Origin: a virus
Taxonomy: Duplodnaviria > Caudoviricetes
DNA length: 64,000 nt
Virus record (IMG/VR): IMGVR_UViG_3300014204_000130
Location: 32,001 to 96,000 of that record
Strand: one strand, 5' to 3'
Below, one piece after another: positions 7,700 through 61,529 of this stretch; position 1 is the first letter of the stretch; every line of letters begins with the position of its first letter. The position numbers and the translations under genes are program-made. A model generated the notes under the pieces. That model saw nothing but the letters and a program-made list of their open reading frames with translations, was not told where the DNA came from and ran no database searches.

Positions 7700-7728
7700 T
7701 TGACAAAGTGCTAGTAAAGTGCTATTAT
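7700..7728 (+). promoter_or_regulatory. sigma70-type promoter with AAGTGCTA boxes in the spacer
   Basis: TTGACA-N17-TATTAT. Confidence 0.75.
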
Positions 7729-11995: not shown

Positions 11996-12025
11996 TTGAC
12001 AAAAGTGCTATCTCTGTGATAGTAT
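11996..12025 (+). promoter_or_regulatory. sigma70-type promoter with AAGTGCTA box
   Basis: TTGACA-N18-TAGTAT; GGAGG RBS before ATG 12043. Confidence 0.65.
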
Positions 12026-12458: not shown

Positions 12459-13517
12459 ATGATTGAAATGGAAACCAAAATAAATAAAAATTGTGGGATG
12501 CGGAAACCACATAATCTAAAAGGATGCATCGAAAGAACTGGTTTAAGTTTTAAAGAATTTGCCATTAAACTTGGAATTCAAACATCCTATTTAATGTCTC
12601 TGTTAAATCGGGTTGTTTCAATGCCGAAAAGTACCAAGAAACGAGCATATGCAATTATACGTGAAATTGAAAGTAATTGCCCTTTGCCAAGTAATGAAAT
12701 TGTAAGGAGTGAGATCATGAAGGATTTGAACATTGAAAATAAACCCGATTTGACAATTGAGGAGATTTCCAAATATCCTAGCAATGTTACCACTGAAAAT
12801 GTACATCCTTTGAAAATAGAAATAATGAAAACTGGAATTTCATTTTCAAAGATAGCCAGAGAAATTGGTATTGGCGTTGGAAAATTATCCAACATGTTAA
12901 ATTTATCTGGAACTAGTCGAATGACTCCTGAATATGAAAATCTAATTCGTGAATTTTTGGAGTTGTCCAAATCAGTTAAAGTAATCACCATAGAAAGTCC
13001 TATAATTAAAAAAATTACATTCGAACCAAGTCCTTTGAAAACAGCATTGGTAAATTTGATCAAAGAATGTAAACAAGAGCGAGATCAAATGAAAAATCTG
13101 AAGAATTCAAATCAGAATACTTCTTTGGAGATTGATAATTTACATATTCAAATTGAGAAATTAAATGATGAATTAAATTGTAATATTGAGAAATTAAATG
13201 ATTCCGATTTGGATAGATTAAATTTGTTGAATGTAATTAATAATATGGTTGGAAAATGTCCAGTTTGTGGAGGTTCGCTGGCATGTAATTCGACAGGTGA
13301 TAGTTTTACTTGTCTTGAACCCGAATGTTTCTTTGCCGAACGAACTTTAACTTGGAAGCAATTATGTATTATCCGACAATACGAATTAGAAGAGTTCCCA
13401 GATTCATTTGACGATGAGTTGGATCTTTCGGATGTCGTTGACAATATCGATCCTCCATATGAGAGTTTGTTATTCGGGATCGATGGAAATATCTTGAACC
13501 CTCGTAAACCCGCATGA
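12459..13517 (+). CDS. Tandem XRE-type HTH regulator with coiled coil and Zn ribbon
   Basis: GLSFKEFAIKLGIQTSYLMSLLN and GISFSKIAREIGIGVGKLSNMLN; CPVC...CLEPEC. Confidence 0.7.
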   Translation: MIEMETKINKNCGMRKPHNLKGCIERTGLSFKEFAIKLGIQTSYLMSLLNRVVSMPKSTKKRAYAIIREIESNCPLPSNEIVRSEIMKDLNIENKPDLTIEEISKYPSNVTTENVHPLKIEIMKTGISFSKIAREIGIGVGKLSNMLNLSGTSRMTPEYENLIREFLELSKSVKVITIESPIIKKITFEPSPLKTALVNLIKECKQERDQMKNLKNSNQNTSLEIDNLHIQIEKLNDELNCNIEKLNDSDLDRLNLLNVINNMVGKCPVCGGSLACNSTGDSFTCLEPECFFAERTLTWKQLCIIRQYELEEFPDSFDDELDLSDVVDNIDPPYESLLFGIDGNILNPRKPA

Positions 13518-14803: not shown

Positions 14804-15546
14804 TAATATTTTTTGACAGTCTTTTAAAAGACGGAATTTCCCAGTAGGACCGTAAACTGTGAATTTGGAATTCCGTCTTTTGTTGGACAGAATTTTGAAA
14901 GTTGAGAATTTAACATGTCACTTTGTCCAAGATGTAAAGTAAATGAGAAACAAATATTTAAGACAGGTAAAGTCGGTGCATATTGTAGAGAATGCCAGAA
15001 ACATTACCATGATAGGTATTATTATGGTGAAGGTGGTAAACCTGTGAAGATTCCGAAACCCCCGAAACTTCCAAGAATCCCGAAAACAATTTGTCCAAGA
15101 TGTAAAGTAAATGAGAAACATAAATTTCCAAATTGCATGGCTGCTTATTGTTTGGTATGCGTCCGAGAAGTGGATAAGGAAACACATAAACGAAGAATGT
15201 TGGAAGATCCCGTCGAGATAAAACGAAAACATCACTTGGCCGTTCAAAGATATCAGAGGAAGACAGATCCTGAAAGATTTCGTCGATATAGAAAGATGGG
15301 TATGAAGGAAATAGACACTTCATTGACATTGGCATTCGTAATGGATTGGTTTAATGGTGAATGTCAGGAATGCTTTAATATCTGTGAATTCGGAGGAGAG
15401 TATAAACCAACAATTGATTATATAGTTCCGTTGAAGTCTGGAGGACAACATGTGAAGGAAAACGTAAGGCTGTTGTGTAGAAGTTGTATGCAAATAAAAT
15501 GGAGAAATTCTATTTCATAATATTTTTGGACAGTCTTTTAAAAGAC
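14804..15546 (+). mobile_element. HNH gene cassette bounded by 29-nt direct repeats
   Basis: TAATATTTTT(T/G)GACAGTCTTTTAAAAGAC at 14804-14832 and 15518-15546. Confidence 0.6.
14915..15520 (+). CDS. HNH endonuclease-like protein, probably catalytically degenerate
   Basis: Duplicated CPRCKVNEK fingers; TIDYIVPLKSGGQH...NVRLLCRSCM (His->Tyr and Asn->Met relative to DHIIP..GG.H...N...C..CN). Confidence 0.75.
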   Translation: MSLCPRCKVNEKQIFKTGKVGAYCRECQKHYHDRYYYGEGGKPVKIPKPPKLPRIPKTICPRCKVNEKHKFPNCMAAYCLVCVREVDKETHKRRMLEDPVEIKRKHHLAVQRYQRKTDPERFRRYRKMGMKEIDTSLTLAFVMDWFNGECQECFNICEFGGEYKPTIDYIVPLKSGGQHVKENVRLLCRSCMQIKWRNSIS

Positions 15547-15550
15547 ACCT

Positions 15551-15587
15551 ACCCCTCTTGTCTGTATGGAAAGAGGGGTTTCTTTTT
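15551..15587 (+). terminator. Rho-independent terminator
   Basis: ACCCCTCTT/AAGAGGGGT stem followed by TTCTTTTT. Confidence 0.7.
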
Positions 15588-16301
15588 GTCCAACGTTGGA
15601 ATTTGAGAGCCGAAGGCTTCCTGTTGAGATGGGGTTGTCTAAGATTGGACAGTTATAAATTCGTTGCTTGTCTAAGATTGGACTCCTGTTGAGATGGGTA
15701 GAGAATTGGGAGGAAAAAGAATGGGTTACGGATGATATGGAAAAGTTGGTTATGCATCCATATACCACATGAAGTACTGCCGTACCCTCCGCATTTTCCG
15801 GAAATGCTCGCATTATTTTATTCCACCGTACAACCCGCATCAACACACGTTCTCCACAGTCGTACATATAGCACCGTACTAGCTGTACCGTACTCTCATA
15901 CCTTGCAAACGCTGATCAATACTCATTTTCCACGAATCAATGATATGCACGCCGAAAGTACAAGTCGATATGGTTGGTGCATTATGCACGGCAATGAAAA
16001 GTGGAAAACTCGTAGGAATGGCTTAAAATGGAAAAAGGTAGAATTGCCTGGGAATGGTCGGAAAAAACTTGTCCAGCAAAAGACTGGGAAAAACTGATAC
16101 TCCTGAGTATCAAAATTTTAAAATGCGGTTTTGTAACCAGTCCGTGAAATATTGCAGTCTTTTAAAAGATTTTTCGGAATGGCCATTCCTATTGTATTGG
16201 CGATTCAAAAATTCTCTCCTCTTCTCCATGGGGAAGTATAGAGTAGGGGGAAGGGTAAGATTCTATATTGAAAAAATAGTTATCGAGAATGAAGAAAACA
16301 T

Positions 16302-16330
16302 TTGACAAGTGCTAGCACTCGGAGTAACGT
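16302..16330 (+). promoter_or_regulatory. sigma70-type promoter heading the ncRNA/early transcript; palindrome AGTGCTAGCACT in the spacer
   Basis: TTGACA-N17-TAACGT. Confidence 0.6.
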
Positions 16331-16396
16331 ATTTCTTGTAAGTGCATTTTAAAACTTACTCCCTTCTTGGAAGGGGATTGCCCAAAAATTTGAAAA

Positions 16397-16848
16397 GTGA
16401 ATCGGCAAGAGTAGACGAAAGGCCAAAAATCTCTCCCCCGCCGGAAACGGCGAAAAACCTAGCTTCAGGGGAGGTAAAGTTTATCAGGATACAACGCCTT
16501 AGCATCCGTCTACTATCCAAAACGTGATTAAAGTGTCACGTGTCGGAACGGCGCAAGGATACGGCGATATCTCGAAAGTCTCCCGAAGTAGAAAATCAGA
16601 GATGAGTAGAATACCGTAAGCGTATTAAATGGCAAGAGGTAAGATACCCGGCCACCCGCAAGGGTAAAAGTGAACCGATATACAAGTGATATCACGGGCA
16701 ATGGTATAACCTACCCTCTCCCCCTACTCTCTCGTGAGAATGTCGGAAGGACGAAAGTATACCAAAGTGAATGCGGATAGCTAGAAAAATGCGTGTTGTA
16801 GTAAGCTTGGTAACTGTTTTTCGTCATGCGATACCCTTACCGATTCAC
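16397..16848 (+). ncRNA. Large ornate structured RNA, ROOL-like (~450 nt)
   Basis: Closing stem GTGAATCGGCAAGAGTA/TACCCTTACCGATTCAC (15/17); AGTAGACG/CGTCTACT stem; GNRA-capped hairpins (CGCCG-GAAA-CGGCG, ACCC-GCAA-GGGT); long-range CTAGCT/AGCTAG and TACAAC/GTTGTA; no credible ORF. GUGAAU..AGAGUAGACGA and CAUCCGUCUAC match recalled ROOL segments. Confidence 0.7.
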
Positions 16849-16857
16849 AACGTTCTT

Positions 16858-17224
16858 TGAAAAGTGCATCGGGAAAACCCCTTTCTACTCAGTAGTAAAA
16901 ATCATTCCCGTTTCAGGGAATGATAAATTAATTTAAAAGGAGTCAATATGAAAAACAATATCATTCTCCCTGAAATTTTCGGCAAGCTTACTTCCGACAA
17001 CGCCGTGGTTCAGAATACCAATGAGGCATACAAGCGCGGTATTGCCATGCAAAAAGCAGTAAAGGAAGCTGAAAAAACGGTAAAGTTGGCTAGCGATTCC
17101 TTTCAAGCCGAACTCATTGCGCGTGCTTCTGACTTACACGTGGTCATTCTGACCATGAAAGCATCTACCATTACCAAGTAAGCACTTGTGACCTGACTTC
17201 CGGTTTTTCCCGATGCACTTTTCA
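16858..17224 (+). repeat. Perfect 20-bp long-range inverted repeat with boxA-like 5' arm, enclosing a 77-aa ORF
   Basis: TGAAAAGTGCATCGGGAAAA (16858-16877) / TTTTCCCGATGCACTTTTCA (17205-17224); GTTCTTTGAAAA at 16852-16863. Confidence 0.9.
16948..17181 (+). CDS. 77-aa hypothetical helical protein
   Basis: AAAGGAG RBS preceded by a hairpin and AAATTAA. Confidence 0.7.
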   Translation: MKNNIILPEIFGKLTSDNAVVQNTNEAYKRGIAMQKAVKEAEKTVKLASDSFQAELIARASDLHVVILTMKASTITK

Positions 17225-17375
17225 TCCCGGCTCATGTTGCTTGTATGCGTTCGGCTTACTGGTTCTTCAGTTTGCGCGTGCTGCATGTTTTCATGAGCCG
17301 GTTGTCCTGTTCTCTTCTGTTTCTCGTATCGGATTTTTTTCCGGACAACATTTTTTCCGAAAGGAGATTGCCAAA

Positions 17376-17774
17376 ATGAATACACTTGTAGAATTGAAAA
17401 AATCAATTCAGGCTTGCAAGGAAGTTATCTCACTTTGCAAGTCGAGTAATGGGGAATATTGTCTCTTGGCAATCTCTCCGAGAAAAACGGGATTTGCCCG
17501 GAGTATGTTTTTCCGGGCGATTCAAAACAATGTCCGTTCCATTCTACCCAAAGGGGTATATGGAACATTCATGGAAGATGGGGAACATGTTACGGTGGAA
17601 GTATCGCCGGAACATGTTCCTTGTCTGGTAGAAAGAATGGAAAAGAAATACATTGTTTCCATTCTGTCTGATTCAAGGATTGACGAGAGACAATCCTTAT
17701 CACCACGTGAAACACAGTGCAAGAAAACAAGACGAGTTACCGCTTGCACTTCCTCTACTCGGACAAATAAGTAG
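17376..17774 (+). CDS. Hypothetical protein
   Basis: AAGGAG RBS before ATG 17376 (MNTLVELKK...). Confidence 0.55.
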   Translation: MNTLVELKKSIQACKEVISLCKSSNGEYCLLAISPRKTGFARSMFFRAIQNNVRSILPKGVYGTFMEDGEHVTVEVSPEHVPCLVERMEKKYIVSILSDSRIDERQSLSPRETQCKKTRRVTACTSSTRTNK

Positions 17775-17831
17775 GGAGAAATTCCCTACCATGTTTTCCC
17801 GGTTTAAAAATTCATTCTCAAAATAGGTTTT

Positions 17832-17927
17832 TGTATCTTTTCCAGATCTTTGGAGGGATACAAAAACCTTGTTGTCGTTCCCGGAATAATCTGTATCTTT
17901 TCCAGATCTTTGGAGGGATACAAAAAC
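17832..17927. repeat. Two identical 36-nt hairpin repeats with a 24-nt spacer (mini-array-like)
   Basis: TGTATCTTTTCCAGATCTTTGGAGGGATACAAAAAC at 17832-17867 and 17892-17927. Confidence 0.9.
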
Positions 17928-18126
17928 ATTGCATTTTGCAATGTCCACCAAAAGATGCACAACGGTTTATCATTTCCGTTGTCATCTTGCATCTTTCTTC
18001 AGTTAAAAATGATAAAGATCATTTGCAGGCCGTTTCAACGACGGTGACTGCAACGGCTTCAATGCCGTGAAATGATATGTATCCGGTTCGTTTCAGAACT
18101 GGAAAATTCGTAAAGGAGGTGTCATC

Positions 18127-19530
18127 ATGACATCTCAAAACAACGTCGCCAACTTAATCGGAAGTCTTCCGGCTTCCGTAAAAAATATTGCGACCGCCGT
18201 TTCGAAAGTCGGCGGTCGATCGTTTCTGATCGGGGGAGCCGTTCGCGACTTCTTCCGGAACGGCTCCGACCCTAAAGATTTCGACCTTGAAATCCATGGG
18301 TTGCAACTGGAAACCCTGAAAGGGGTTCTCGACGGTCTTGGAATGGAAACCAAGACCGTCGGAGAATCCTTCGGGGTTCTCAAGGTTCGCGACGAGGAAG
18401 GGAACGACCTTGACATCTCCCTTCCTCGTCGAGACAACAAATGTGGCGTCGGCCACAAGGGGTTCACCGTCGAAGTGGACCCCAACATGACTATTCGGGA
18501 AGCTTGTTCCCGTAGGGATTTCACCATCAACACAATGATGGTGGATATCCTCACAGGGTCTATCGAAGACCCATTCGGAGGATTGGAAGACCTCCAAAAG
18601 GGAATCCTTCACCATACCTCGGAGCAATTCTCCGAAGACCCATTACGGGTTCTCCGGGGAATGCAATTCCTTTCCCGGATGGGATTCCGGGCTTCCCAGG
18701 AATTGGAGGAAACCTGTTCAAAATTGGTTTCCTCCTTCTCCGAACTTCCCAAGGAAAGAGTTTGGGAAGAGTGGAAGAAGTGGGCTGCAAAAGCCCAATC
18801 TCCTTCGAAGGGATTGGAATTTCTCCGGAATTCCGGATGGGTTTCCAACTTTCCGGAGTTGGAGGCACTCATCGATCTCAAACAAGAACCCTCCCATCAT
18901 CCCGAAGGGGATGTGTGGGAACACACGCTGCATACGGTCGATGCAGCGTGTAAGATTGCCGGGAGGGAAAATCTCCCGAGTGACCGGAAAGTTGCCCTTA
19001 TGTTAGGGGCACTTTGCCACGATTTCGGTAAGGTAACAACCACCGAAGTTATCGATGGGGTTATCACATCCAGGAAACACAACGTAGCCGGGGAAGAACC
19101 AACCCGGTCATTCATGGCGCGGATAGGTGCGCCAAAAGACCTCACCGAAGAGGTCGTCCATCTGGTCCGTGAACATATGATTCACGTCTTCGGTGAACTG
19201 ACGGACAGCGTTGTTAAAAAGCTGTCCTCCCGGATCAACGGGAAAACCACCGTAATAATGGTTTCACATGTGATCGAGGCTGATCACGGTGGCCGACCTC
19301 CATTCGCCGCCGTTCATCCTTGTCCCCAAATCCTGGAAATGGCAGCGAGATTGAATGTTCTCGCCGCACAACCGAAACCTTTCCTGACCGGACGACATCT
19401 CATCTCGCTCGGGTTCAAACCCGGTCAGGAAATGGGAAAGGTTCTCAAGGAGCTTTTCGACCTTCAACTGGAGGGAAAGATTGCCTCGGAGGAGGAGGCA
19501 ATCACATTCGCGAAAACAACTCGGGATTAA
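18127..19530 (+). CDS. cca: Class II tRNA nucleotidyltransferase (CCA-adding enzyme) with HD domain
   Basis: GGAVRD, DFD, RRDFTIN, EDPLRVLR, ERVWEE, HHPEGDVWEHT and CHDFGK motifs. Confidence 0.93.
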   Translation: MTSQNNVANLIGSLPASVKNIATAVSKVGGRSFLIGGAVRDFFRNGSDPKDFDLEIHGLQLETLKGVLDGLGMETKTVGESFGVLKVRDEEGNDLDISLPRRDNKCGVGHKGFTVEVDPNMTIREACSRRDFTINTMMVDILTGSIEDPFGGLEDLQKGILHHTSEQFSEDPLRVLRGMQFLSRMGFRASQELEETCSKLVSSFSELPKERVWEEWKKWAAKAQSPSKGLEFLRNSGWVSNFPELEALIDLKQEPSHHPEGDVWEHTLHTVDAACKIAGRENLPSDRKVALMLGALCHDFGKVTTTEVIDGVITSRKHNVAGEEPTRSFMARIGAPKDLTEEVVHLVREHMIHVFGELTDSVVKKLSSRINGKTTVIMVSHVIEADHGGRPPFAAVHPCPQILEMAARLNVLAAQPKPFLTGRHLISLGFKPGQEMGKVLKELFDLQLEGKIASEEEAITFAKTTRD

Positions 19531-19645
19531 TCCTCTCCCATGCATCCACGATCTTGTGGAAGGAATGCATTCACGTCGAGTCGTGACATGGGAATTGCAA
19601 ATTCTGTCTTTTGTTGGACAGAAAATTAAACGTAGGAGAATCTAT

Positions 19646-19840: not shown

Positions 19841-20486
19841 TCATAAAATTCTTCAAAAACTCCATGCGTGTTCGGAAGCCGTAAAATGGGCTTCACAGTT
19901 TCCCACGTTACAAGAGGCATGGAAATCATGTCCTCGCGGGGATTGGATGTTGTGGGTAGCGTCCAAATTAAAAATTGACCAACGAGCACTATTCCTCGCA
20001 AGAGGACAATGTGCAAACACTGTCCGGCATCTCATGAAAGATGCCAGAAATATCGCGGCGGTGGATGCAACCATCGCCTTCGGCAAAGGGGAAATCCCAG
20101 AGATTCCAAAAGATGTCATTGCAGCAGCATATGCTGCTGCTGCTGATGATGCTTCTGCTTATGCTTCTGCTTATGCTTCTGCTGCTGCTTATGCTGCTGC
20201 TGTTGCTGCTGATGATGCTTCTGCTTATGCTTATGCTTCTGCTGCTGCTGATGCTGCTGCTTATGCTGCTGCTTATGCTGCTTCTGCTTATGCTTCTGCT
20301 TATGCTTCTGCTGCTGCTTATGCTGCTGCTGTTGCTGCTGATGATGCTGCTGATGCTGATGCTGCTTATGCTGCTGCTTATGCTGCAAGAAGCGAAAATA
20401 GACAGAAAACCGCAAATATCTGTCGGGAAATTCTAACCGATGAGGTATTCTCAAAGTTGAAAAAATTGGAGGATTCCGACGAATGA
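19833..20486 (+). CDS. Phage protein with Ala-rich (AAAY/ADD) repeat tract
   Basis: LHACSEAVKW...AWKSCPRGDWMLW N-terminus; GGAGG RBS. Confidence 0.75.
   Translation: MNNHKILQKLHACSEAVKWASQFPTLQEAWKSCPRGDWMLWVASKLKIDQRALFLARGQCANTVRHLMKDARNIAAVDATIAFGKGEIPEIPKDVIAAAYAAAADDASAYASAYASAAAYAAAVAADDASAYAYASAAADAAAYAAAYAASAYASAYASAAAYAAAVAADDAADADAAYAAAYAARSENRQKTANICREILTDEVFSKLKKLEDSDE
20121..20388 (+). repeat. GCT-based trinucleotide low-complexity tract with an internal ~69-nt duplication
   Basis: GCT/TAT/TCT/GAT codons; duplicated block at ~20151 and ~20280. Confidence 0.85.
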
Positions 20487-21279: not shown

Positions 21280-21885
21280 ATGACTACTCCAGTTGCTAAG
21301 AAGACCATTGGATCTAAGGTTGCTGCTCCCGCCAAGACCGTTGTTGCTCCAGTTGCAATGGCATCTGCTACTAAGCAATGCCCTCCGAATCCTCCACTTA
21401 ACGCAACCCCGGTGAAGCCCGTTCTTCAAGCGGCAACCGTTCTTTCCTCCGTTCTTGAAAAGAAGCGCGGTGGTGGGTTGACCAAGGAAGCCAAAGCCAA
21501 GAAGGAAGCCGAAAAGACGGCCAAGCTCAAGATCATTCGGGGAAAACTGGTCGCCTCACTCCTTGCCGATTCCACTCTTCTGGCTGACCCGTCGGAAATG
21601 GCAGCCGCAATGATCTCACTAGAGGATAAGGTTGTCCTCCAATACGACCTCGAAAACCCTTCCGGTCGTGTCAAATCCGACGGCCATGATGGACGCGGCT
21701 ATACCCCACAAGAAGTGGCTCAGGTTGCCGTCTTTTCTTGGACGCAGAAGTATGGTAAGAACATGACAGAGGAACAGGTAATGGATGCTTGGAAATTCGC
21801 CATGTGTAACCCGAAGGCTCCTCGTGCAAAGACCAAGAGCGTGAAGCCTACGACTCCCCCGGCGATTGCTGAAATTCCAGAATAA
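21280..21885 (+). CDS. Basic Ala/Lys/Pro-rich hypothetical protein
   Basis: PVAKK...AAPAK N-terminus and AKAKKEAEK; preceded by the palindrome leader. Confidence 0.65.
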   Translation: MTTPVAKKTIGSKVAAPAKTVVAPVAMASATKQCPPNPPLNATPVKPVLQAATVLSSVLEKKRGGGLTKEAKAKKEAEKTAKLKIIRGKLVASLLADSTLLADPSEMAAAMISLEDKVVLQYDLENPSGRVKSDGHDGRGYTPQEVAQVAVFSWTQKYGKNMTEEQVMDAWKFAMCNPKAPRAKTKSVKPTTPPAIAEIPE

Positions 21886-48161: not shown

Positions 48162-48538
48162 CGTTATTTCCTCGTAGAATTTCTTGATTCGAATCTGAGC
48201 CTTATTGCTTCAAACAAATCACTATCAATGGTTTCATCAAGTAAAATAATCCCATTGATATTTAATCCAAGCATATCTTGTACTTTTGATACTTCACAAT
48301 ATGTGAAGTATGATGAATCAAGCGATTTCAAAAATTCCAAATATTTCACATGATCTTTGGTTACTACACAGATACTTTTGGTATTCATTGTTAGACTCCT
48401 AATTGATTGTTTGAAGTAAGAAGATATGAACTGTTTCTTGATTACGAAAGTTTGACTTCCAACCACCAATTGAACATTAAGTTAGTGAAGCAAAAAGCCC
48501 TCGTGGTGGGATAGACATCCATTCATATCTTCCAACAT

Positions 48539-48632
48539 TGGGAAGAGTGGGATTAGAACCCACGGGAATCCTTCTTTAAGGACTCTACGACACGTTACAA
48601 CGTCGTGCAATAAACCACTCTGCCATCTTCCC
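48539..48632 (-). tRNA. Class II tRNA-like element (GTA/Tyr-like, distorted anticodon arm, no CCA)
   Basis: GGGAAGA/TCTTCCC, GCA-GAGTGGTTTAT-TGC, long variable arm, GTGGG-TTCTAAT-CCCAC; promoter TTGACA-N18-TAACAT at 48771-48742. Confidence 0.65.
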
Positions 48633-48773
48633 ATGAGAGGTGTTGGTGTCCGATAAACAAACTCCACCGTTTATAAGACACCAACACCATAGACGTATAT
48701 CCGGCCTAGATTTTCCAATCAGATATACGCCCGCGAACTCTATGTTAAAACATCAACAATGAAAATGTCAATG

Positions 48774-59991: not shown

Positions 59992-60960
59992 TTATTTTCC
60001 ATACTCCAAGTTGATTACTTTGAATGAAAGACGTTCACCCATGATAGTTTCTTCTTCGATAGGCCGAAACACTAATCCTTCCCGTGGTTTATCGTTTGGA
60101 TAATTCCCCTTCGCCATATCCTGTAACCATTTGTTGGATACATCTTCAGGAAATGTTCCAACAAGATCAACAACCACCATTGGAAGTTGATTTAATCTGC
60201 AAAACTCCGTCAATTCCAGATAGCCGCAGTATTTGTGCTCTTCAATACTGTAAAGATTGAATACTCGCAAATCTTTCTCAGGGAGTCCCATCGGATTACC
60301 CTGAATACTTGGTCCAACCATTTCAAATTGAATAGCATATCCTTCAGGAAGCTTGTTAACAAGATCATACTTTCTTGCAAGACACCAAATCAAATTATGT
60401 GGGGTGTCTTTCATTGAAAGATTTCTTGAACAACAAAACATTTCCCCTTTGTATTTTCCAATGGTTCCTGAACTCCCATCGGCCTTCACAGATGCATAGT
60501 ACGATTTACCTTTCAATGCATCTACAAGATGAGAAGCCGTTTGGAAGTTTGGTTCGTCTGTCTTTGGCATGAAACCGGGGAAGTTACCAAGTGCATCGCC
60601 AGCAATACTTGGATCAATTGGTTTCTCATACTTGATGACTTTCATTGCATCACCAATATCATCACCAATTGTCATATCACAACCAACATTCGGCATGATG
60701 AGAACTTCCGACGCAACACCTTTGAACTTGCACATGGTTACACGGAACTTTCGTTTCCTCATGAATTCAAACCGTTCAAGTTCTGGAACAATTGCATCTG
60801 GAAGATATACTTCAACATAGTCACCAATTTGCATTTCTTTGCTGACAACACCATGCCATTTCCCACCCTGACCGCAAACTACTTCAGCTTGAACGATCTT
60901 GTCTGCATCTTTAATAGGATTGATGTTGATGATCTTACCGATGAATGCTAAACCTTTCAT
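59992..60960 (-). CDS. ATP-dependent RNA ligase (Rnl2/DRB0094-like)
   Basis: N-terminal PI..ADKI OB-like module; PKTDE, KADGSS, CSRN, REGLVFR, SFKVIN. Confidence 0.88.
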   Translation of the reverse strand: MKGLAFIGKIININPIKDADKIVQAEVVCGQGGKWHGVVSKEMQIGDYVEVYLPDAIVPELERFEFMRKRKFRVTMCKFKGVASEVLIMPNVGCDMTIGDDIGDAMKVIKYEKPIDPSIAGDALGNFPGFMPKTDEPNFQTASHLVDALKGKSYYASVKADGSSGTIGKYKGEMFCCSRNLSMKDTPHNLIWCLARKYDLVNKLPEGYAIQFEMVGPSIQGNPMGLPEKDLRVFNLYSIEEHKYCGYLELTEFCRLNQLPMVVVDLVGTFPEDVSNKWLQDMAKGNYPNDKPREGLVFRPIEEETIMGERLSFKVINLEYGK

Positions 60961-61529
60961 GATTCTTCTTCCTCTTTCTTTTTTGGATATAGCCAATCGA
61001 ATCGCCAAATCTGTTCACATTTCATTTCAAATGCAATCTTTGCACAAACTACTTCATATTTCACACGATAATAATTCTTGCAAAGCCATTCAGTTACTTC
61101 TTGATTTGCTTTATTTTTAAACTTTGGATAATTACATGAGAAGATCATCATAAGAACATACAAACTATTCTTCGTATCTTTCAAGTAATTGTATAATAAT
61201 TCTCGATCATTGCATGAGAAAACATATTTTACAAGTTCAAATGGATTGACATCTTTCTGTGTATCTTCCGATAGTTTTGTAATTTTGTATTTCTTTGTCG
61301 ATGCGCGTTTACCTTTCAAAAGTTTGTAATCGTGAATTACAATTGTAAGATTAACTCCACTTTCAATAAGAAGATCAATGTCTTTCTTCTTCAAATTCAA
61401 TTCATCGGAATATGCAACAAGGTTTTTGTCTTTGGTCATGAAGTTCTTATTGATACTTGCGGAGGTTATCTCAGAGATTACGAAATCGTTCTTCTCAAGT
61501 TCATATTCTCCGTAAATGAAATGGATCAT
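60957..61529 (-). CDS. Possible clamp-loader accessory subunit
   Basis: IHFIYGE.E...NPFELV pattern; near the RFC gene; weak evidence. Confidence 0.35.
   Translation of the reverse strand: MIHFIYGEYELEKNDFVISEITSASINKNFMTKDKNLVAYSDELNLKKKDIDLLIESGVNLTIVIHDYKLLKGKRASTKKYKITKLSEDTQKDVNPFELVKYVFSCNDRELLYNYLKDTKNSLYVLMMIFSCNYPKFKNKANQEVTEWLCKNYYRVKYEVVCAKIAFEMKCEQIWRFDWLYPKKKEEEES

Follow-up and report, generated by a model that had tools for sequence, protein, structure and literature searches.

What kind of transcript does a phage make from a stretch in which a non-coding tract, a boxA-type word, two small open reading frames (ORFs) and the gene of a CCA-adding enzyme (cca) follow one another on the same strand? 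This question is raised by positions 16302-19600 of the DNA analysed here, a stretch of 64,000 nt (the window) that comprises bases 32001-96000 of the linear 108,145-base IMG/VR virus record IMGVR_UViG_3300014204_000130, with an estimated completeness of 88%. Positions are those of the window unless stated otherwise. The answer that we put forward is a Nus-antiterminated, RNase III-processed and nuclease-resistant transcript of a unit dominated by RNA structure. As judged from the sequence, this is quite possible, at somewhat less than even chances, and the idea that the phage mimics a host rRNA (rrn) operon appears to be the best-supported reading of the stretch. In addition, the coding sequences of cca and of a 132-aa ORF (ORF132) are saturated with hairpins, which is a real unexplained anomaly that was missed by the earlier note on this DNA.

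The evidence that carries the rrn comparison is the boxA-type word GTTCTTTGAAAA and the helix that is fused to it (stem 2). Stem 2 is paired at 22 of 23 positions, with 20 consecutive perfect pairs and arms that are 321 nt apart, and it is the top long-range inverted repeat of the window. Its duplex energy of -36.7 beats all 100 shuffles (-20.5 +/- 2.6). The same word with CT added, GTTCTTTGAAAACT, is present in more than 120 genome contigs. Eighteen loci from Bacilli and Mollicutes that have GTTCTTTGAAAACT were scanned by Rfam for its position relative to rRNA. At nine of them the word precedes 16S by 30-130 nt or is located in the 16S-23S spacer, and two Mycoplasma-group loci have it in both places. 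At seven other loci a contig ends within ~130 nt of the word, as happens where assemblies break at rRNA operons, and no rRNA was found at the remaining two. In Bacillus testis, 16S is enclosed by a stem of 27 nt (89% complementary) that has the word inside its 5' arm and its 3' arm after 16S. The phage layout is, at the level of sequence, the Bacillus rrn layout with a small gene in place of 16S. The earlier note had described a boxA-like word opening a perfect 20-bp stem around a 77-aa ORF and had drawn an analogy with rRNA operons, and both claims agree with these results.

The word has the consensus of an rrn-type boxA site and may act as one. It is on the transcribed strand, downstream of a promoter-like site and just ahead of a stem. 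NusB of B. subtilis binds a boxA-like element of rrn, and long untranslated RNAs other than rRNA are likewise protected by boxA (PMC13753749). Literature searches for the word, written as RNA, gave no match. The leaders and spacers of Bacillota rrn operons and the phage stretch both have the identical 12-nt word fused to the 5' arm of a helix of at least 20 bp, with the 3' arm placed after the enclosed RNA, and both have two stem-closed units in series behind one promoter. However, the rrn operons enclose rRNA, whereas the phage encloses a 450-nt RNA of unknown kind and a protein-coding message. The element is also phage-borne, and its first unit has just the 3' two-thirds of boxA.

The first of the two units (unit 1) is closed by stem 1, whose 17-nt arms (16397-16413 and 16832-16848) are paired at 15 of 17 positions. 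The stem continues via GACGAAA (16414-16420) and TTTCGTC (16819-16825) to ~22 bp with two mismatches and a 6-nt bulge. Its duplex energy is -25.2 kcal/mol, which beats 100 of 100 shuffles (-15.9 +/- 2.2). Stems 1 and 2 both have the form of a putative RNase III-type stem, which is a duplex of at least about 20 bp made from flanking sequences. They also begin with a common leader, where 16389-16408 and 16856-16875 are identical at 18 of 20 positions. Its core GTG[AC]ATCGG has five copies in the 108-kb genome, four of which are the four stem arms. The ~450-nt RNA-like stretch closed by a 17-nt stem and the common leader at 16389 and 16856 had both been pointed out before, and both are present. 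No credible ORF was found in 16306-16947, where the sole frame is a 61-codon GTG frame without a ribosome-binding site (RBS) and with a codon score of 0.01, compared with 0.35 +/- 0.12 for real genes. The minimum free energy (MFE) of unit 1 is -140.6 (z -3.8 versus dinucleotide shuffles), a fold signal that is suggestive, not compelling.

Unit 1 could be compared with a diverged relative of the phage in a wastewater run. The contigs of that run differ from the phage at two positions over 16651-16800 and at one over 16811-16884, and past 16884 they are only loosely alignable. The RNA of unit 1 is therefore much better conserved than the sequence that follows it. With the lone change that is listed, A>G at 16843, a U-A pair in stem 1 becomes U-G. 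The library is labelled RNA-Seq cDNA and is probably DNA, with 151-nt contigs over 16651-16884 only; these contigs reflect conservation and are not readable as expression.

The strongest structure signal is not in unit 1 but in the hairpin-saturated block at 17325-19570. The six strongest outliers of a GC-corrected (guanine-cytosine-corrected) fold scan of the 108-kb genome in 449 windows are all within 17201-19120. The z values versus dinucleotide shuffles are -8.5 for 17201-17680, -5.9 for 17775-18130 and -11.8 for 18161-18640. At 150-nt resolution the signal begins at ~17325 and fades past the cca stop, so its edges are the ORF132 leader and the cca stop. Synonymous codon permutation, which keeps the protein and the codon usage, gave z of -13.7, -9.8 and -5.5 for the three thirds of cca and -6.7 for ORF132. 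The values are -0.3, -0.9 and -5.2 for three control genes and +0.5 to -4.0 for 13 other phage cca genes including the closest (43-53% identity). Compared with these 13 homologues, only the message of this phage is strongly folded beyond its synonymous permutations. The perfect hairpins in the cca ORF occur at ~6 per kb versus 1 per kb genome-wide, at positions that are not shared with the homologues beyond chance. The residues under them match the family majority at 57% versus 53% for the rest, therefore a working enzyme has been kept and the structure laid over it. For example, the arm that encodes the invariant SLPRR pairs perfectly, over 14 bp, with codons of a variable segment upstream. 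The coordinates of all features are collected in Table 1.

Table 1. Features identified at and around positions 16302-19600 of the window.
Feature	Position	Strand	Basis or value
G-rich segment complementary to the C-rich 16712-16730 in unit 1 (12 + 6 bp, one bulge)	16240-16257	+	Inverted-repeat search
Promoter-like site TTGACA-N17-TAACGT with palindrome AGTGCTAGCACT in the spacer	16302-16330	+	Pattern search
Unit 1: ORF-free, A-rich, ~450 nt, GNRA-capped hairpins; closing helix 16397-16420/16819-16848	16397-16848	+	
boxA-type word GTTCTTTGAAAA, 6 nt of which are shared with the 5' arm of stem 2	16852-16863	+	Exact 12-mer
Unit 2: stem 16858-16880/17202-17224 looping out a leader hairpin, the RBS and the whole 77-aa gene	16858-17224	+	
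77-aa gene, orphan	16948-17181	+	Codon score 0.47; no internal RNA structure (synonymous-permutation z -0.7)
Hairpin-saturated block: ORF132 with its leader, 350-nt spacer, cca coding sequence	17325-19570	+	Fold scans
ORF132 (132 aa), orphan	17376-17774	+	Codon score 0.10
Two 40-nt hairpin repeats, 39/40 identical, first 36 nt identical, 60 nt apart	17832-17871, 17892-17931	+	
CCA-adding enzyme (class II, HD domain, 467 aa) whose ORF has nine perfect hairpins of 8-14 bp	18127-19530	+	

The hairpin saturation could be a by-product, either of a GC-rich cassette acquired from a hairpin-rich donor or of template-switch (quasi-palindrome correction) mutation. The GC content of the block is 0.52, compared with ~0.40 for the phage, and perfect stems are the expected product of template switching, which reportedly produces them; the strand asymmetry of the block is also weak. 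We consider this origin improbable, as none of the 13 homologues (0/13) has the hairpin saturation, another GC-rich gene of the phage, at 21280, has a synonymous-permutation z of -0.3, and the protein is as conserved under the hairpins as elsewhere, a sign that both layers have stayed under selection. A mutational cause acting across the genome is unlikely, since the genome outside the block is normal. The GC content also bears on the earlier claim that the whole block is GC-richer than its flanks. The GC content is indeed above that of the flanks (0.37-0.42), but the excess comes mostly from the cca gene (0.52-0.54), and that of the RNA stretch is only 0.45-0.46.

The object of selection may instead be DNA. 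The GTG[AC]ATCGG copies would then be protein-binding or recombination sites, as in invertons or shufflons, that flip unit 1, the 77-aa gene or both, and the palindromes of ORF132-cca would be DNA hairpins or cruciforms for replication, packaging or injection. The stem arms do alternate in orientation around a common core, the leader resembles TTTGACAAGTGC of the promoter, and in cca the two strands fold with similar energies. However, no serine or tyrosine recombinase (Resolvase, Phage_integrase) was found in the 108-kb record by a search whose controls were positive, and no inverted-form joint was found in the contigs of three runs, although contigs can hide rare forms. One of the arms (R1) lacks the TGAAAA part that is common to the other three, and the palindromes share no sequence by which a protein could recognise them. 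The hairpin block also ends at gene boundaries, and the GNRA loops and the A-richness are strand-specific. A DNA-level role therefore seems improbable. We favour RNA rather than DNA as the selected object because of the coincidence with gene boundaries, the sequestered Shine-Dalgarno region of ORF132, which can pair with 17466-17479 and be drawn into a helix, and the RNA-type context.

The proposed transcript would be made as follows. Transcription would start at a phage promoter of the TTGACAA..AGTGCTA class, and the transcript would first fold the ~450-nt non-coding domain that is closed by the ~22-bp interrupted helix. The putative Bacilli-type rrn boxA would come next, fused to the 5' arm of the 20-bp perfect helix that loops out a complete small gene. 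NusB-S10 of the host and their partners would load at boxA, and RNA polymerase would become termination-resistant over the long, poorly translated RNA. Both long helices would be cut by host RNase III, and two stabilised RNAs with duplex ends, unit 1 and the 77-aa mRNA, would be set free. The enzyme would have to come from the host, as the genome search found no RNase III gene of the phage. The message of ORF132, the spacer and cca is arranged, largely through its synonymous sites, as an almost unbroken series of 8-17-bp hairpins. Such hairpins would be too short to be cut by RNase III, but they may keep Rho and RNases specific for single strands away from the message, and the enzyme that repairs tRNA 3' ends would thus still be made while RNA is under attack. 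When the sequence between units 1-2 and cca was scanned, neither a promoter-like site nor, on the plus strand, a terminator with a proper U tract was found.

A bolder version is that the phage uses the logic of the host rRNA operon in miniature and employs host Nus factors and RNase III to make an excised, stable RNA of ~450 nt that belongs to a new class, as well as duplex-capped, hairpin-armoured messages, among them an "RNase-hardened" counter-defence cca mRNA that was recoded synonymously against RNA-targeting host defences. We regard this version as unlikely. If the more modest reading is true, the phage borrows the rRNA antitermination and processing signals of its host for its own RNAs without an N-like protein, and boxA biology is extended to phages of Gram-positive bacteria, where the rrn system itself has only just been probed. 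The hairpin-saturated cca is a rare natural case of an extreme RNA (or DNA) fold encoded over the sequence of a conserved enzyme, and it bears on the benefit of such folding, whether this is message survival under RNase-based immunity, Rho escape or another.

Polycistronic early transcripts with RNase III sites between genes are made by the phages T7 and T3 and by the Bacillus phage SP82, and boxA takes part in antitermination at the nut sites of lambda. The proposal for the present phage is similar in that double-stranded signals are placed between the genes of an early transcript and host factors are used for antitermination. However, the sites of T7, T3 and SP82 are local intergenic hairpins, whereas the stem described here loops out a whole gene, and the boxA of lambda requires the N protein and a boxB hairpin, whereas no N-like gene is recognisable here. 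A further parallel is the boxA-dependent protection of long untranslated transcripts such as CRISPR arrays, a chromosomal case from Gammaproteobacteria (cited in PMC13753749). In both systems boxA stands ahead of a long, poorly translated and structured RNA, and the phage unit differs in having coding genes downstream.

Several results weigh against the rrn-like, processed transcript. A second exact GTTCTTTGAAAA is present at genome position 18452 (window -13548) on the minus strand, within a 353-aa ORF and without a following stem. It is probably a chance copy; such a word can thus arise fortuitously, and an exact match does not by itself prove a boxA. Of boxA, the leader of unit 1 has just the eight bases of the 3' part (TTTGAAAA). 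Unit 1 is no outlier in the genome-wide fold scan, and its local 150-nt windows are ordinary in fold energy; any structure of unit 1 must therefore be long-range. The 18-bp complement to unit 1 is located upstream of the promoter-like site, whose -35 element is perfect but whose -10 element (TAACGT) is weak, and the site is absent from the list of a consensus promoter scan. The sole variant available for a comparison of the stems is the one wobble change at 16843, and no relative with the whole arrangement was found. The plus-strand folding advantage is -3.6 for the block and -2.4 kcal/mol per 150 nt for controls (p 0.32); neither this asymmetry nor the G-U versus A-C mismatches in near-perfect stems, 12 to 5, separates RNA-level from DNA-level palindromes. 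The RNA ligase gene, the second repair gene of the phage, is also not among the structure outliers of the plus-strand scan.

Some of these points lead to the most serious rival, in which only cis-acting mRNA structure is present, with no Nus recruitment, no discrete stable RNA and a fortuitous boxA match. Unit 1 would be a long structured 5' leader, stem 2 would be a 5'-3' fold-back by which, as in type I toxin mRNAs, the 77-aa message is either stabilised or silenced, and the downstream hairpins would tune translation and decay. The chance copy of the boxA 12-mer, the modest fold signal of unit 1 and the sequestered Shine-Dalgarno region of ORF132 all suit this explanation, and so does the leader of the 77-aa gene, which is of the phage's ordinary hairpin-AAATTAA-RBS type. 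However, the boxA word is placed exactly as in Bacillus rrn and is fused to a stem arm, two stem-closed units with a common leader follow each other, and unit 1 is far better conserved in the relative than its flank. We judge cis-acting structure alone to be somewhat unlikely, and the rrn-like transcript is retained as the preferred reading.

The 77-aa product is predicted to be a single long helix over residues 6-76, with a predicted local distance difference test (pLDDT) value of 86. ORF132 has low protein-likeness; its single-sequence AlphaFold model is poor (pLDDT 55), and the ESM Atlas gave no usable match for it.

The ~450-nt stretch had been labelled ROOL-like, and this label fails. ROOL RNAs are ~570 nt, occur in phages and prophages and are often located beside tRNA islands (PMC12286853). 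Rfam 15 gave no match anywhere in the window at the gathering score, and neither ROOL nor any large-RNA family was matched at E<=10 over 16200-18200. The other Rfam families considered (GOLLD, OLE, HEARO, raiA, RNase P, introns and rRNA fragments) were also not matched, the best E-values being 0.1-9 for unrelated short eukaryotic models. The ROOL model (RF03087), for which membership is set at 99.1 bits, found nothing at E<=10 across the whole 108-kb genome. The positive control, the published ROOL of Ligilactobacillus salivarius pMP118, scored 130.4 bits (E 1e-29). The longest word common to this RNA and unit 1 is 9 nt, and the segment that had been taken for ROOL sequence is absent from it. 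Unit 1 was rejected as a ROOL, with no model match, a length of ~450 nt, no tRNA island near it and no sequence likeness, and a false assignment is thereby removed. ROOL and GOLLD (RF03087, RF01998; PMC12286853) are like unit 1 in being large, ORF-free, GNRA-rich RNA-like phage stretches whose function is not known, and they differ in being at least 574 nt, in that neither covariance model matches here, in the tRNA island that is lacking here, and in that unit 1 has no likeness to true ROOL.

Unit 1 could still be a compact member of ROOL, with the 36-nt hairpins as a CRISPR mini-array or a repeat-mimic anti-CRISPR RNA. This is suggested by general resemblance only, namely that the phage RNA is large and looks ornate and that the 36-nt repeats are palindromic, with GTTTTTGTA at the start of their reverse strand. 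We consider it highly improbable. The ROOL model is silent at E<=10 yet gives 130 bits on pMP118, shared words are at most 9 nt and no tRNA island is nearby, so that ROOL is already refuted at the level of the family model. As for CRISPR, the unit between the repeats is just 20-24 nt, and the 21-nt core of the repeats has no match in 185,579 species genomes (one genome each), among which the host may be unsampled.

The two hairpins upstream of cca, described earlier as identical over 36 nt, were confirmed, and the first of them extends to a 13-bp outer stem at 17825-17869. A hairpin TCCAC-GATCTT-GTGGA at 19545-19564, just past the cca stop, resembles the repeat core TTCCA-GATCTT-TGGAG; GATCTT-loop hairpins are not rare in this genome. 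A 20-nt palindrome-like unit (GCAGCAGCATATGCTGCTGC/GCTGCTGCTTATGCTGCTGC) occurs at least five times at 20121-20377, inside the ORF 20041-20436; the local fold z is as low as -5.3 at 19875-20024. Coding-sequence structure beyond synonymous permutations (z -5.2) is also present, as a second and weaker case, in the first 468 nt (12459-12926) of a regulator-like gene of 352 aa.

The identity of cca was confirmed by three Pfam domains, the PolyA_pol head, HD and the C-terminal tRNA_NucTran2_2 (E-values 5.8e-17, 9.9e-9 and 7.2e-7), and by 101 invariant columns in common with 11 homologues that include GGxVRD, DxD, RRD and HD. The RNA ligase gene that had been placed at 59992 was confirmed as well (59992-61008, phrog_968). 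The gene product shares its domains and catalytic motifs with other phage class II CCA-adding enzymes, whose genes are common (481 phage records), and in this genome the RNA ligase is encoded elsewhere. The protein collection holds the cca product only as a 331-aa protein (71% of the ORF). In the source the gene call probably begins too far downstream, because homologues can be aligned with the 467-aa frame from residue ~12 onward. The earlier proposal that cca may mature the RNAs upstream of it is pure inference and is unsupported. The closest cca-bearing phage contigs (43-53% identity), which are distant relatives, have no such RNA upstream of cca and have ordinary small genes there, and no conserved synteny of an RNA with cca was found. 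In contigs L002 and L022-L024 the sequence upstream of cca is either dense in small genes or an unrelated repeat region, with no Rfam matches. The repeat region belongs to L023, a 213-kb contig with a related cca, and is a 1.8-kb, gene-free, T/G-rich tract upstream of cca (positions 340-2104 of L023) that is unrelated to unit 1 and has no Rfam match.

The lone tRNA candidate that ARAGORN predicted in the 108 kb is located 32 kb away at 48538-48633 on the minus strand; it is 96 nt long with a four-base anticodon, gtaa. The Rfam tRNA model is below threshold at this position, and there is no credible tRNA gene in the genome. A 20-bp hairpin (48639-48688) adjoins the candidate. The presence of cca and an RNA ligase without a credible tRNA gene points to the repair of host tRNAs.

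The site at 16302 had been described as a sigma70 promoter. The perfect -35 element and the membership in a family of three sites stand, while the -10 element is weak and the consensus scan did not list the site. TTGACAA..AGTGCTA is common to three promoter-like sites (7700-7728, 11996-12025 and 16302-16330), and AAGTGCTA has five genomic copies, four of which are directly after a TTGACA. The site was accepted as a member of a phage promoter class because the three sites and these four copies share the layout. The three sites suggest a class of phage promoters with an operator-like word, or regulator site. The word (A)AGTGCTA forms a direct repeat at 7700 and a palindrome at 16302.

The pairing of 16240-16257 with 16712-16730 is used in the MFE fold of 16200-17240; duplex folding of the whole lengths for this pairing returned meaningless full-length duplexes. 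The ORFs 15732-16097 (121 aa) and 16054-16305 (83 aa) upstream of the promoter-like site have codon scores of ~0, a weak RBS or none, and no homologues. The non-coding tract may therefore begin at a terminator-like strong hairpin 3' of the HNH gene (15551-15586, CCCCTCTT...AAGAGGGG, then T-rich), and it may span ~1.36 kb (15590-16947). Two pairs of direct repeats, CCTGTTGAGATGGG and TTGTCTAAGATTGGAC, are present at 15620-15699 in swapped order, A-B...B-A.

The host is probably a member of Bacillota. Near-identical DNA of the phage is present in a landfill run, probably the source, and in a groundwater run of another study, and no RNA run was listed as carrying it. The phage has no DNA match in the cultured-phage collection, its DNA polymerase has a best identity of only ~25% to those of cultured phages, and no viral contigs close to it by DNA polymerase or ATPase were found. 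No homologues were found for the 77-aa, 132-aa and 121-aa ORFs, and exact-pattern scans of viral contigs and metagenome contigs gave no relatives of unit 1. A gapped pattern anchored on the stem gave 16 matches, all of which were rejected as unrelated by blastn and nhmmer. Plus-strand genes extend from before the window start to ~33.9 kb; the stretch 16302-19600 is therefore inside this block and not demonstrably at its head.

Gene-leader palindromes of the GTC-N8-GAC type are repeated at 14804-14868, 15518-15546 and 19600-19625, and they cause false joins by assemblers and aligners. A contig joint 15546->19600 in the source run, which would be a 4-kb "deletion", was rejected as an artefact of this kind, as the 36 letters that bridge it come from positions 14833-14868, which are flanked by two copies of the leader palindrome.

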